The position numbers and the translations under genes were made by a program. 29,876 nucleotides of DNA from Candidatus Bathyarchaeota archaeon RBG_13_52_12. GTDB taxonomy: Archaea; Thermoproteota; Bathyarchaeia; TCS64. The stretch is from contig MEZF01000047.1 in assembly GCA_001774245.1 (NCBI GenBank), positions 69,601 through 99,476 on the forward strand, written 5' to 3'. The notes beneath the pieces were generated by a model, which saw only the letters and a program-made list of their open reading frames with translations, was not told the DNA's origin and ran no database searches. This document shows positions 9,810-13,535 of the stretch, in pieces. The stretch's first letter is position 1. Every line of letters starts with the position of its first letter.

Positions 9810-9872
9810 AGCGCATGCGATCAGCGTGCTGATTCGTTAATTCTTGGCCTACCTCTCCCTACGTGCATGTGA

Positions 9873-10101
9873 GTAGATGAGACTGTTTCGACCGGGTTCT
9901 CGGATCTCGAGGTGATCAGGAACTTATAGCAGCAGGATATTCAACATGGGGGATATCACAATCAAGACTCAGAGTGAGAGGGACTTCACTAAGAGGATGG
10001 TCAAGGTGAGGGATCCGATGCGGGTCGCCAATTTAATCAGAGACGTGATGGCCAGGCAGTTATTCAAGCTTGATGAGCGTAGCACTGGAAAAATTAATTA
10101 A
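9873..10101 (+). pseudogene. Remnant of a bacterial-PH-domain (DUF304-like) protein
   Basis: Frame 1 reads VDETVSTGFSDLEVIRNL then TAG at 9927. After a shift the sequence reads SRIFNMGDITIKTQSERDFTKRMVKVRDPMRVANLIR, matching the recalled R.fn.GdI.I.T...v.dP..v pattern. Confidence 0.45.
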
Positions 10102-10182
10102 ACGTATTTTTTACGCGCTAGGACATTGAGAAGAGCAAATAGTAAAAAGTTCCGCGCGCGCCTGCTTCTACGTACAGCGCAC

Positions 10183-11019
10183 TTATGTGAGTTCGGACAG
10201 CTGTTTCTTTATTCTTTTTCGGACGTCATCGGATGCTTTTCTGGCACGAATAAGCAGTCTTAGTTTAATGTCAGATACTGAGTCGGGATAAAAGGATAGA
10301 ATGAGGTCTCGTGCACTCTGTACATAAATGGAGTCGGCTTCGATAAGAGTGTAAAATTGTTCGAAAAGTGAATTATAGAGTTCTGCCTGCGGAAGAAGTT
10401 CTGATATGATTGTAAACGCTTGGTGTCTATTCTCCTCCGTCTCCTCCATGTTTATTGTGAACTGATTTAGTGGACCTAAGAATACTTTGGAATATACGAC
10501 TCTTTTGTCTTCATCTGAGTTTTTAACAAAATTCTTTATTATAGCTAGTATCTCTTTTTTACGAATTTTTTTGTTTAGTATGTTGTTGATCGTTTTTAAT
10601 GATTCAGCGTCATAGGTTGTTTTTCCCTTGCTTTCTTGTTCTAAAGTAGTAATACCCATGTCAATCAATGCTTCATCATTGGATTGGATTAGGTCTAGGT
10701 ACTCTCTTAGTAATTCTGGTTGTATTTCGTTGTCGTAGAGTTTTTTTTCCATGATTCTTGTTAAATAGCTAAAGAGATGTCTTACTGAGGCTGTTAGCTT
10801 TACTTTTCGTTGTCTTCCATGGATGCCTTTTTCGCTAGTGCTTTGGATTATGTGCAGTTCCTCTAGCTCTTTTAGCGCTCTTGATATGTTGCCCTGGTCT
10901 TTCTTGAGGGTGCTTGTCAGTTCGTTGACCGAGAGTTGTTTGTCCGGGTATAGGATTTGAATAATCGCGTAGTGTTGCAAGATTTTTAAAAGTAATTTCG
11001 GCTCGGTTGAAACGGACAT
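10183..11019 (-). CDS. Winged-helix (MarR/ArsR-like) DNA-binding protein with alpha-helical C-terminal region
   Basis: LSVNELTSTLKKDQGNISRALKELEELHII is a wHTH. The gene is strongly AT-rich compared with its neighbours. Confidence 0.75.
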   Translation of the reverse strand: MSVSTEPKLLLKILQHYAIIQILYPDKQLSVNELTSTLKKDQGNISRALKELEELHIIQSTSEKGIHGRQRKVKLTASVRHLFSYLTRIMEKKLYDNEIQPELLREYLDLIQSNDEALIDMGITTLEQESKGKTTYDAESLKTINNILNKKIRKKEILAIIKNFVKNSDEDKRVVYSKVFLGPLNQFTINMEETEENRHQAFTIISELLPQAELYNSLFEQFYTLIEADSIYVQSARDLILSFYPDSVSDIKLRLLIRARKASDDVRKRIKKQLSELT

Positions 11020-11108
11020 AGATTATAGTTGAAGGATAAGAATATTAATGTCTTCCTTATAATAAAGTTAAAAATATTTATATGTATATAGAACCATAAT
11101 AATATTAG

Positions 11109-11240
11109 ATGCATATGAATAATGGGGATGAGATGCTGGAGTCGATTCGAACTGGACTGACTGGAGTAAAATACACAAGATTTTCGATTAACTCTCTGCC
11201 AAGTTCAGCAAACGTGTTGGAGGTGGAGTTAAATGGTTGA
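11109..11240 (+). CDS. Possible 43-aa leader ORF overlapping the parB start
   Basis: ATG 11109 to TGA 11238-11240, overlapping parB ATG 11233 by 8 nt. No recognisable homology. Confidence 0.2.
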   Translation: MHMNNGDEMLESIRTGLTGVKYTRFSINSLPSSANVLEVELNG

Positions 11241-12372
11241 GAAAGTGATTCGGCTAAGTGACATAAGGACGAACCCTTATCAAACAAGGATCTTGAGCTA
11301 TGAGAAGGAGGACGCTGTACTTAAGAACTCGATATTGGTTAGCGGGATGCATGTGAAACCAATCGTTAGGTCTCATCCATCTATACCGGGTAAATTTTTT
11401 ATTGTTGACGGGCAGCGGAGGGTGAACGCGGCTACGGCGCTGGGATGGATAGAGATTGAGGTGGAGGTAGTTGATTTCTCCGACAAGGGGGCCGCGGAGG
11501 CGACGTTGAATACTAATCTTCATCGTAAAGGCCTGAACCCAGTTGAGGAGGCGATGGGCTACAGGTTGTTGGTCAGTGAGTTCGGGTACACGGAGCAGAT
11601 GGTCGCTGACCGATACGGGAAATCCAGGTCCTCTATAGCCAATAGGTTAAGGCTGCTTGAGATGCCCCTCTTCCTGAAGATGGGTGTTTTGTGCCAAACG
11701 CTTTCGCCGTGGCAAGCCTTAACGATCATGATGCTCCCGAAAGAGTATCGACGCTGGGAATTGGGGAGCCTCGCAATGGGCTGGTCCCTCACCCGAAAAG
11801 AGCTGAGGTCCATCGTTGAGAGTGTCAAGGGTGGCGAGGTCTTCGTCAGTTGGCACCGTGTGGTGCCAGTCGCTGGTTTATGGCGGGCGGCTAGAAGCGG
11901 ATCGACTAGTGAGGAGCATGAAGGGATGCCTAAGATGGACTTGAATCATTCGGAGCCGGTGGCTTGCTACCCGTATGGCTACGTCGTGGATGGGTATGAA
12001 ACGGTTAGGCGCGCCCGAGCGGAGGGCGTTAAGCAGCTGGCCGTTGAAGTGTTCTTCGAAGTGGAGTGGCTTCGTGAGAAGCCGCTGTTGGATGTCCCGG
12101 GTGACGCCGGCTACGTTGATGAGTCGATGCCAAGGATCATACCAAGGCTGAGTGCGGAGCAGGAGAAGAACATGAATTTATTTCTCAATCTGCTGAAGGG
12201 CAGGGAGAAGGATTACCCTGCTCTCTGCGTTGTGCACATGGCTGAGAGGAACGTGTTAGATCTTCCTGAGGCAAAGCCTGTGGTGGGCGGGACGAAACCC
12301 AGCCGCAAGGCTAAGGCGGTTCTCGTAGGACTGTTCCCGGCTTGCCTCGTGGATGAGGTCTCTAAGGAGTAA
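11233..12372 (+). CDS. parB: ParB/Spo0J-family protein with HTH and a second degenerate ParB-N domain
   Basis: IRTNPYQTR, PIVR, IVDGQRRVNAA, NTNLHRKGLNPVEEA and GKSRSSIANRLRLL align to Spo0J. C-terminal EPVACYPYGYVVDGYETVRRARAEGVKQLAVEV. SD GGAGGTG. Confidence 0.92.
   Translation: MVEKVIRLSDIRTNPYQTRILSYEKEDAVLKNSILVSGMHVKPIVRSHPSIPGKFFIVDGQRRVNAATALGWIEIEVEVVDFSDKGAAEATLNTNLHRKGLNPVEEAMGYRLLVSEFGYTEQMVADRYGKSRSSIANRLRLLEMPLFLKMGVLCQTLSPWQALTIMMLPKEYRRWELGSLAMGWSLTRKELRSIVESVKGGEVFVSWHRVVPVAGLWRAARSGSTSEEHEGMPKMDLNHSEPVACYPYGYVVDGYETVRRARAEGVKQLAVEVFFEVEWLREKPLLDVPGDAGYVDESMPRIIPRLSAEQEKNMNLFLNLLKGREKDYPALCVVHMAERNVLDLPEAKPVVGGTKPSRKAKAVLVGLFPACLVDEVSKE
11685..11700. promoter_or_regulatory. 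Degenerate parS-like site inside parB
   Basis: TGTTTTGTGCCAAACG is 13/16 identical to the downstream palindrome core. Confidence 0.45.
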
Positions 12373-12435
12373 GTCCTCACGATGGTGATGAGAGGCGCTG
12401 CCGGCTCAGGGCCTGATGCCCTCGTTCTAGACTCG

Positions 12436-12453
12436 ATGTTTTGCGCAAAACAT
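12436..12453. promoter_or_regulatory. parS-like perfect 18-bp palindrome
   Basis: ATGTTTTGCGCAAAACAT lies 64 bp after the parB stop. Its core matches bacterial parS TGTTTCACGTGAAACA at 12/16 positions with symmetric changes. Confidence 0.65.
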
Positions 12454-12504
12454 GGTACAGCGCAGAAGCCGCCTTATACTGCACTGATGGTCGGACACTC
12501 AGGC

Positions 12505-12526
12505 GCTATGGGAGCAGTCCCATAGC
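12505..12526. repeat. Perfect 9-bp stem hairpin
   Basis: GCTATGGGA-gcag-TCCCATAGC. Confidence 0.6.
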
Positions 12527-13237
12527 TGAACCGTTCTAGCTGATGAGGCAGTTGGCTGCAGCGGCAACTCAGGGAGCTTAGGTGGCTGTGGCGGCTCATG
12601 GCTGCGGCTGTGGTGGCATCTGAAGGCTACGAAGCTGCTGCGAGGCTCTCTAAAGAGGAGTCATTACACCTCTCTGGTGTGGCTCTGGCTAAGCCCTCCT
12701 GGGTCCTGAAGGCTTTGGTCAGCTTTTCTCTCGAGTCCCTTCAGCTGAACGGCCGGCTCTCCCCCGATGATGACTATGTTCGGTCGCTCCTCTGGCTGCC
12801 CGCTGGTCTGCCGTGGTCGAGGGGGCTGGGCGACGGTTGATCTGGCTGGCTGCGGTTGCGGTTGAAAGCTTAGTTGAGGCGTTAGTTGGGCTGGTTGAGC
12901 AATCGGTAGAGTCGGCAGAAGTCTTTCAGCGTTTACAACCTCCCCCATAGGAACCGTGCTAACCGCCTCAACCTTCTCAGCCGTCTGTACCGGCCTCTCA
13001 ACAGAGACAGCCGGCGCAACCGACTTCTCTACCGAGTCAGCCGGAACCACCGACTGCGGCTGCCCAGCCACTGGAGCCGGCTGATTCTTGGGGGAGCGCG
13101 CAACCCAACTGGAATCTTCTTCGGATCGTACCCGCCTACCACCAAATTATCGAATATTTTAGCGCAGGCACTTGTTGCGGTTTTTCTGGTCTAGAGGGTG
13201 TGCTCATGGTCGGTGCCGGCCGTACCCCACCTTCTAA

Positions 13238-13450
13238 TCGATAAAACAGTTATTTATCGAAAGTAGTTTGGAGAAGATTCAATGGATGATTTTTAACAAG
13301 CATCCATCAGTTGATGAAAAGGTCAATCGGCTTCTGAAACTATAAGGGCTGCGCACTCGGCAGCGCGACTACACTCTCTCCTAAATGCTACGCGCACGCA
13401 AAAGCCACTCCAGAGCACATACTGTCAATGACCTTTTGACATGATGTGCT
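13238..13450. repeat. Cluster of inverted repeats
   Basis: TCGATAAA-N7-TTTATCGA (13238-13260); ATGGATG-N12-CATCCAT (13282-13307); 15-bp arms with 2 mismatches around N7 (13414-13450). Confidence 0.7.
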
Positions 13451-13535
13451 TCTGCATACCGACGACTCTCCGCATCTATTTTAATTCGTGGTTAAGTATA
13501 ACCATGTTCCAGCGTATTCACGAGTTGAATTTGAT

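Follow-up and report, generated by a model that had tools for sequence, protein, structure and literature searches.

A perfect palindrome behind an orphan archaeal parB gene, with a decayed copy inside it, as the likely cognate parS-like site of the encoded protein

Bacterial ParB/Spo0J proteins, such as those of Bacillus subtilis, Thermus thermophilus and Caulobacter crescentus, are paired with the 16-bp dyad parS (TGTTNCACGTGAAACA). Noc of the Bacillota is a ParA-independent ParB paralogue with its own NBS sites, and its specificity has been changed at four positions of the helix-turn-helix (HTH) domain. KorB of plasmid RK2 is an orphan-like silencing clamp of the ParB family, which has OB operators and a small HTH partner, KorA. 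Archaea, to our knowledge, are generally held to lack chromosomal ParABS. The Sulfolobus plasmid pNOB8 encodes AspA-ParB-ParA, in which an archaeal protein of the ParB fold is combined with a winged-helix, site-specific adaptor. According to the available portion of a survey of the ParB-CTPase fold (PNAS 2025; PMC12704722), archaeal HTH-ParBs are scattered, rarely accompanied by ParA and unlikely to act in chromosome segregation; that portion names no DNA sites for them. A literature search on archaeal parS found no description. The subject of this analysis is an orphan parB gene, at positions 11233–12372 (+) of a 29,876-nt stretch of Candidatus Bathyarchaeota archaeon RBG_13_52_12 (contig MEZF01000047.1, here G000:C47:69601-99476), together with a palindrome found behind and within this gene. 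The whole stretch is referred to as the window; the genome comprises 2.08 Mb in 111 contigs and is 85% complete. G, C and L numbers are our handles for genomes, contigs and loci.

A perfect 18-bp palindrome, ATGTTTTGCGCAAAACAT, is located at 12436–12453 (strandless), 63 nt past the parB stop; an earlier note on this DNA had described the palindrome correctly but placed it 64 bp behind the gene. The second site, TGTTTTGTGCCAAACG, lies inside parB at 11685–11700 (+). Direct matching confirmed what the note had said of it, namely a 13/16 match to the 16-mer core at a distance of 752 nt from ATGTTTTGCGCAAAACAT, and the note's figure of about 4 × 10−6 per position for a match of at least 13/16 is arithmetically right. 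With up to three mismatches allowed, these two sites are the sole matches in the window, and the heptamer TGTTTTG is found in the 29.9 kb only at these positions. Between 9800 and 13500, no other 18-mer with at least 8/9 palindromic pairs was found besides ATGTTTTGCGCAAAACAT. A chance origin, by which an unrelated palindrome would be joined by a fortuitous 13/16 match, has next to no probability: the window does hold only two copies, one of them imperfect, but 0.04 matches are expected, none of 100 dinucleotide shuffles reached two, and at least 12 related loci carry the site again, at a fixed codon. It is likely that TGTTTTG-NN-CAAAACA represents the cognate parS-like site of the orphan ParB, perfect 63 nt downstream of the gene and decayed within it.

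For the comparison with relatives, the subfamily was represented by about 22 cluster representatives (E-values ≤ 1 × 10−30) from an exhaustive profile-free search; the loci compared at the DNA level are those other than that of family member P0114. Every relative with recoverable DNA has a palindrome of the form TGTTTT(G/A)-NN-(C/T)AAAACA, either at the same codons as in the window or 36–370 nt from the gene. The internal site consists of the last base of the preceding codon plus the codons for the peptide V-L-x-K-T, at about residues 151–156. In the window, it covers codons G151–T156 and has decayed to 5/7 arm pairs, whereas relatives are perfect there. The three closest homologues, with 76, 61 and 56% identity, come from JGI metagenome contigs. 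The ortholog locus L024 (76% identity) carries TGTTTTGTGCAAAACG at the corresponding codons and, behind the gene, TTTTTTGTACAAAACA, preceded by the left flank that is also seen in the window (GGGCCTGATGCCC followed by TCGTTCTAGACTCG, 12409–12435, + strand). Locus L026 combines internal TGTTTTGTGCAAAACA with a weaker copy behind the gene, and L025 has internal GTTTTATGTAAAAC on a contig that ends 189 nt past the stop. Perfect 7–9-bp arms occupy the same codons in L118, L119 and L120 (TGTTTTATGTAAAACA, CGTTTTGTGCAAAACG and TGTTTTGGCCAAAACA, respectively), L141 contains two internal sites, and L140 has TGTTCG-TTGT-CGAACA.

External palindromes like that of the window are found beside L104, L036 and L139. 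The best match within the genus, on G015:C4 (41% identity), has no internal site and carries ATGTTTTACGTAAAACAT 111 nt past the stop; L139, likewise with no internal site, has the 18-bp GCGTTTGACGTCAAACGC 36 nt past the stop, and L036 (34% identity) has TGTTTTACGTAAAACA about 370 nt upstream of the gene. The intact genes without an internal dyad (n = 3) are exactly those with a perfect external palindrome. N-terminally truncated ParB remnants in G003 and G015 have kept a perfect TGTTTTGGCCAAAACA, with the near-palindrome CGTTTTATGTAAAACG 600–730 nt further on. These remnants (L017, G015:C7:48233-48721; L021, G015:C23:64423-64779; L009, G003:C117:4393-4677) are interrupted by stops or frameshifts and lie downstream of a flap endonuclease gene. 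As the earlier note had expected, the palindrome is thus present near orthologous parB genes, and at paralogous loci as well. Each gene's site ranks in the top 0.1–1% of its 18-mers for dyad symmetry. A scan of the genome contig collection with the peptide pattern returned no relative, a search of viral contigs gave two weak partial matches only, and the plasmid and phage collections yielded only matches of the N-terminal half to bacterial ParB/Noc.

Where the peptide stays the same, opposite bases of the dyad switch as pairs through synonymous codons: G7/C10 results from Leu TTG and Cys TGC, A7/T10 from Leu TTA and Cys TGT (L025, L118), and the outer pair at positions 1/16 is T/A or, in L119, C/G. 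In many of the family sites, the symmetry runs through the centre (GCGC, ACGT, GGCC, ATAT). Alternatively, the downstream palindrome could end transcription in both directions, or form an RNA hairpin, where two genes converge, and its intragenic copy could simply follow from a conserved peptide. The palindrome does lie between convergent open reading frames (ORFs) with T4 on both strands, archaeal RNA polymerase terminates at oligo-T, and V-L-x-K-T is a conserved peptide in the family. However, the peptide permits about 400 codon combinations, and the relatives use the palindromic ones, switched in pairs; symmetry through the centre is needless for a hairpin loop; and the site of L036 is upstream of its gene. 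In addition, the folded RNA of 12373–12520 was not unusually stable (z = +1.19), and the palindrome was not paired with itself in the minimum free energy fold. Because of the centre-through palindromes and the lack of unusual RNA structure, the sites are better explained as duplex targets of a symmetric dimer than as hairpins, and termination is considered highly improbable.

Comparison of the loci shows gene and palindrome travelling together, with a fixed, ancestral position in the HTH-coding segment, symmetry kept by compensating changes and a sequence that differs from one ParB lineage to another. In correction of the earlier note, the ancestral place of the site, conserved widely, is within the gene, where the window carries the decayed copy. 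Since the relatives hold a palindrome at the same codon despite changes in its sequence, the palindrome is very probably the predicted docking site of ParB itself.

The 379-residue product of parB has both hallmarks of the ParB/Spo0J superfamily, a nucleotide-binding fold with Boxes I–III and a ParB-type HTH. Pfam analysis revealed ParB_N (PF02195) at residues 5–96 (E-value, 6.7 × 10−8; 32.9 bits, cut-off 26.3) and HTH_ParB (PF17762) at residues 101–198 (E-value, 4.7 × 10−17; 62.4 bits, cut-off 22.6), encoded at 11245–11520 (+) and 11533–11826 (+), respectively. The first 200 residues match PDB entries for T. thermophilus Spo0J, Noc and the ParB proteins of B. subtilis, Myxococcus xanthus and C. 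crescentus (E-values, 1 × 10−22 to 1 × 10−18). An AlphaFold2 model (pLDDT, 73.6) has its best Foldseek matches to Noc, ParB and KorB, including CDP- and CTPgammaS-bound ParB, and the DNA-binding domain gives target-length-normalised TM-scores of 0.65–0.86 against those of Noc and ParB. Among archaeal structural clusters in the Atlas, the nearest is labelled Nitrososphaerota. Box I (NPYQTR), Box II (GQRR) and Box III (NTNLHR) align with Spo0J and Noc, and N14, P15, Q17, R19, G60, R62, R63, N95 and R98 do not vary in alignment A1 of the subfamily. Both hydrolysis glutamates are substituted, by Q61 and T94; the M. xanthus counterpart is E93, named in PDB titles as a hydrolysis-defective mutant, and we take the counterpart in the B. 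subtilis mutant to be E111.

The C-terminal part is unusual. For residues 200–379, a Pfam search assigned no family and did not find the canonical C-terminal dimerisation domain PF23552. Alignment by hhalign of the C-terminal block of the subfamily with its N-terminal block gave a probability of 96.8% (E-value, 2.6 × 10−10), and a second PF02195 stretch is present in the relatives P0119 and P0108. Based on these two results, the C-terminus appears to be a degenerate duplicate of the ParB fold (about residues 209–275, followed by a conserved tail) rather than the usual dimerisation domain. A regular expression for the ParA-activating/binding motif, [LFI]G[KR]G[LFI], had no match in the protein, and the KorB domain (PF08535) gave sub-threshold matches only, in relatives.

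The specificity residues were said in the earlier note to read R/R/E/W. Alignments to T. thermophilus Spo0J and Noc, with residues 11–152 aligned ungapped to 42–183 of the 6t1f chain, bear this out: R132, R138, E143 and W160 fall on the four ParB/Noc specificity positions, for which we assume the Caulobacter numbering R173, T179, A184 and G201. In 13 loci, the first of these residues is always Arg and site position 2 always G. The T179-equivalent residue varies with site position 7: Arg goes with G in 6/7 loci and Ser with A in 4/4. In the tree, L104, a Ser/A locus, branches as sister of the window's Arg/G clade with support of 98/96, and deeper nodes are weak. The co-variation of the palindrome with HTH residues that the earlier note had looked to is therefore seen, and its proposal of a cognate ParB/parS pair stands by comparison. 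Its idea of a new specificity is to be scaled down: the site is only a modest derivative of bacterial parS, because some relatives have TGTTTTACGTAAAACA, which differs from TGTTTCACGTGAAACA by one half-site change.

The motif is rare outside this context, and the earlier note's concern that it might be common genome-wide can be set aside. In the 2.08-Mb genome, GTTTTGNNCAAAAC occurs three times (in the window, at C41:14940 and at C48:19519), against about 0.1 expected from base composition. In 40 relatives, it is otherwise confined to the ParB remnants of G003 and G015 and a single occurrence in G033. Perfect TGTTTT-N4-AAAACA palindromes number seven in 71 genomes of the taxonomic family, and six of these are in the three genomes that have the ParB subfamily (G000, G003, G015); the seventh, AT-rich, is in G005, a genome without it. 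The other matches to this pattern, in G001, G005 and G009, have non-palindromic centres, lie in AT-rich spacers and seem to be fortuitous.

The DNA around the C41 and C48 copies is absent from the relative G012, and part of the left flank of the window site is shared with both. MAFFT suggested longer similarity downstream of the three sites, which BLAST bore out for no more than about 40 nt. A second palindrome, AATGGTACCATT, forms iteron-like arrays with a spacing of about 62 nt (58–66 nt) at G000:C41:14789-15525 and G000:C48:18990-19575, and may mark a small non-autonomous element. Genomes G010, G011 and G021 have arrays of this kind as well, although both this ParB and the parS-like palindrome are missing from them; the arrays were therefore rejected as an explanation of that palindrome, and the parS-like site goes with ParB rather than with the AATGGTACCATT element. 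The C48 copy is adjoined by an IS4/IS5-type DDE transposase gene (PF01609, DUF772; G000:C48:19712-20590, − strand), with 71-nt inverted repeats about 1.07 kb apart.

Such surroundings raise the question of whether the palindrome serves a mobile element for recombination or attachment, as the target of a tyrosine recombinase or transposase. All three genomic copies are in strain-specific DNA with about 25 nt of flank in common, a transposase gene stands beside one of them, and a phage-type integrase gene directly follows parB in L141. On the other hand, the arms abut with a spacer of 0–2 bp, unlike the core sites of tyrosine recombinases, which have 6–8-bp spacers, and no integrase or transposase is encoded in the window between 9800 and 13500. 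Mobility also leaves unexplained the conserved intragenic position across genes of 35–40% identity with compensatory synonymous changes. This explanation is given a very small probability, a touch above that of termination.

The gene divergent from parB (10183–11019, − strand) encodes a 278-residue protein with weak Pfam matches to winged helix-turn-helix (wHTH) families, and its G–C content of 0.34–0.39 is well below the value of about 0.55 in the flanks. It is a possible partner of ParB. The two genes share the AT-rich intergenic region 11020–11232 (strandless), in which neither a copy of the palindrome nor a half-site was found. In L120, on an NCBI metagenome-assembled genome contig, a winged-helix protein of 85% identity occupies the same position (L120:1-702) beside a ParB of 37% identity, and the site centres differ (GCGC in the window, GGCC in L120). 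The contrast between these identities, together with the differing centres, suggests that ParB cassettes have been exchanged beside a conserved wHTH gene. L119 has a distant homologue of the winged-helix protein in the same divergent position, and in L118 and L005 another wHTH family adjoins ParB.

It could accordingly be asked whether the palindrome is an operator of another protein, most plausibly this 278-residue one, with ParB merely linked to it. Genes for wHTH proteins of 220–280 residues adjoin ParB in the window, L120, L119, L118 and L005, and dyad-symmetric sites suit wHTH dimers. Nevertheless, L104, L036, L139 and L141 have the palindrome and no such neighbour in the recovered DNA; the site is closely derived from bacterial parS and varies with a residue of the ParB HTH; and it is fixed within the ParB coding sequence and missing from the shared promoter region. 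In L120, moreover, the centre of the site differs along with ParB, although the wHTH protein is nearly the same. An operator of this type is thus very unlikely, if the least so of the individual alternatives. Even taken together, the rival readings are unlikely.

Several observations weigh against the assignment of the palindrome to ParB. In the window, the intragenic copy has degenerated and is possibly inactive. About 25 nt of flank are common to the parB-proximal copy and those of C41 and C48, which are in accessory DNA, so the external site may have spread within a small repeat unit. With regard to a chromosomal role, contig C7 carries orc1/cdc6, and contigs C47, C41 and C48 carry one site each; G012, a relative, has the flanking markers on C6 (two, about 205 kb apart) and C2, with orc1 on C1. 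Locus L025 is an exception to the Arg/G rule, and the related sequences are not independent, so that about two coupled switches can be read from a poorly resolved tree. The winged-helix gene, as a recurrent neighbour, could encode the binder. No intragenic palindrome was found in a conserved ParB-like lineage of family f38 (17/56 genomes of that family), whose DNA target must then lie elsewhere; the intragenic feature is accordingly common, not universal. This lineage, encountered in the phylum search (among loci L143–L170), has proteins of about 285–300 residues with the HTH motif IGKSEEYVSHRMQLL, mostly in complete genomes. Finally, the support for the cognate-site assignment is comparative, and clamp behaviour would be an extrapolation, since the canonical dimerisation domain and both hydrolysis glutamates are missing.

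Compared with the bacterial ParB/Spo0J proteins, the window ParB has the same fold and HTH, with 30–35% identity over about 200 residues, and both sites are 16-bp dyads of the form xGTTT...AAACx. In B. subtilis, a parS site also lies inside spo0J itself, as Lin and Grossman reportedly found in 1998; by our reading of the sequence, it lies at the NVPRET codons. The intragenic site of the window is about 55 codons earlier, in the HTH-coding segment, and half-site positions 6–7 differ from those of bacterial parS. Among the features of canonical ParABS, a 16-bp palindrome in and near parB is present, as a comparative association; ParA, the N-terminal ParA-activating peptide and PF23552 are absent, and a degenerate second ParB fold stands in place of the latter. 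As the earlier note had stated, no ParA gene was found among the window proteins. A PF13614 scan of the 85%-complete genome, which extended the search to unlinked genes, likewise found no ParA and only two P-loop ATPases of the Mrp/NBP35 type (PF10609). Unlike bacterial chromosomal ParB, the gene is patchy, being found in 15/401 genomes of the class at E-values ≤ 1 × 10−20, sometimes in several copies, and it lies in accessory DNA.

Noc, the top match in fold and sequence, is altered at the same four HTH positions, but R/R/E/W matches the residues of neither ParB nor Noc. ParB_N starts at residue 5, which leaves no room for the N-terminal amphipathic, membrane-targeting helix of Noc, and the genome has three sites in contrast to the dozens of NBS sites. 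KorB resembles the window protein in fold (target-length-normalised TM-scores of 0.57–0.59), and a divergent gene for an HTH protein is a recurrent neighbour, as in KorB/KorA. The 278-residue winged-helix protein is, however, unrelated to KorA, the promoter region has no site, and the KorB domain is weak and seen in some relatives; a functional parallel to KorB is speculation. The pNOB8 ParB is a weak fold match (E-value, 1 × 10−6) without a sequence-specific ParB HTH; its ParA partner, CenpA-like C-domain and operon with aspA were not seen in the window. With its canonical-like ParB_N and HTH, the window ParB fits the archaeal orphan class, as this is described in the available portion of the survey (PMC12704722).

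From homology and context, we infer clamping, slow hydrolysis and a local role. A ParB dimer would read both half-sites with its HTH, the conserved Arg (R173 equivalent) reading the invariant G2 and the variable 179-equivalent residue reading position 7. With the nucleotide-binding motifs retained, the N-domains would be able to close as a clamp, which would then move off the site and slide along adjacent DNA, and hydrolysis in this predicted clamp would be slow, because both catalytic glutamates are replaced. The result may be local marking, roadblocking (autoregulatory) or silencing of the gene's own locus and of the two other site-bearing accessory segments, possibly with the divergent winged-helix protein as a KorB/KorA-like co-player. 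A site embedded in the gene would keep reader and site genetically inseparable. A role in ParABS segregation is not likely, given the strain-specific DNA and the absence of ParA, of a ParA-activating peptide and of the canonical dimerisation domain.

Elsewhere in the class and phylum, the genes of ParB homologues carry quite different palindromes at the position that aligns with window residues 152–155. These are CGTTTCGCGCGAAACG in L123 (peptide VSRET), TTGTGTCG-CA-CGACACAA in L124 and L126, TCTTGTCACGTGACAAGA in L128, TATCACGCGCGTGATA in L129, TTACACGCGCGTGTAA in L010, L159 and L165, and TACACACGTGTGTA in L132, as well as TAGTATCGATACTA and TTCGTAGCGCTACGAA in a lineage of 440–480-residue ParBs. 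When inverted repeats with arms of 7 bp or longer, no more than 2 bp apart, were sought within 15 nt of codon 154, they were found in 7/12 archaeal genome loci, 5/10 subfamily metagenome loci and 1/35 generic, mostly bacterial, ParB loci; the rate elsewhere in these genes is 0.005–0.011 per 30 nt. Genome G030 has five ParB paralogues (L006, L018, L020, L022, L023), and those that were mapped differ in their palindromes (TATGCCC-AC-GGGCATA and TTTCGCGCGAAA), as would be expected if paralogues use private sites. It is evenly poised whether several archaeal orphan ParB lineages are self-referential units of reader and site, each with its site written in the codons of its own DNA-binding domain, about 15 codons past the N-x-L-R-L-L recognition helix, and diversifying into mutually orthogonal pairs (such as TGTTTTGGCCAAAACA, CGTTTCGCGCGAAACG, TTACACGCGCGTGTAA, TCTTGTCACGTGACAAGA and TTCGTAGCGCTACGAA); the window gene would then have moved its working site behind the gene. 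Gene and site would be inseparable by recombination, as the site is written within the gene.

In the closest relatives, G005 and G013 (81–85% DNA identity), the genes for the Fpg-like protein and the lipoate ligase have matches, and nothing between about 10106 and 13460 of the window does. The segment of about 9810–13460, which contains a small ORF (9946–10101), the wHTH gene, parB and a Pro/Gln-rich ORF, has no counterpart beside the Fpg-like and lipoate ligase genes of these genomes; only its 9884–10105 piece recurs elsewhere in relatives. The segment is probably an accessory island without a recognisable integrase. Elsewhere, ParB has a phage-type integrase (L141), PIN/VapB (L120), Fic (L036) or GIY-YIG (L119) gene as a neighbour, which fits accessory or mobile DNA. 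In L141 (1933–4950 of an NCBI archaeal metagenome-assembled genome contig), ParB is followed directly by the integrase and then CdvA, and three strong inverted repeats with 10–12-bp arms are located inside the start of the integrase gene.

The Pro/Gln-rich ORF (12664–13071, − strand; 135 residues, no Pfam family) converges on the external site. Its paralogue at C41:15051-15551 (48% identity over 102 residues) adjoins the C41 palindrome; since this is the only paralogue and none is found beside ParB in other organisms, the ORF was rejected as a component of the ParB locus. In 12454–13071 (−), it ends in two consecutive stops, and the frame stays Pro/Gln-rich for about 50 codons toward the palindrome; it may be a decayed longer gene. 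The window further encodes a eukaryote-type topoisomerase IB (1–936), which points to an archaeon of the Nitrososphaeria kind, in agreement with the Nitrososphaerota label of the nearest structural cluster. An Rfam scan of the window detected two tRNAs and nothing else.

To the picture drawn in the available portion of the survey (PMC12704722), the present analysis adds predicted cognate palindromes of archaeal HTH-ParBs and their fixed intragenic position. A concrete, sequence-defined candidate target makes the role of these proteins experimentally approachable. With their fixed position and lineage-specific sequences, the sites provide a natural set of ParB/site pairs for studying the evolution of HTH specificity (Arg/Ser versus G/A), and this set could supply orthogonal pairs for DNA-clamp loading as tools. 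If the lineages are indeed self-referential units, a genome with more than one paralogue would possess several private addresses for clamp loading.

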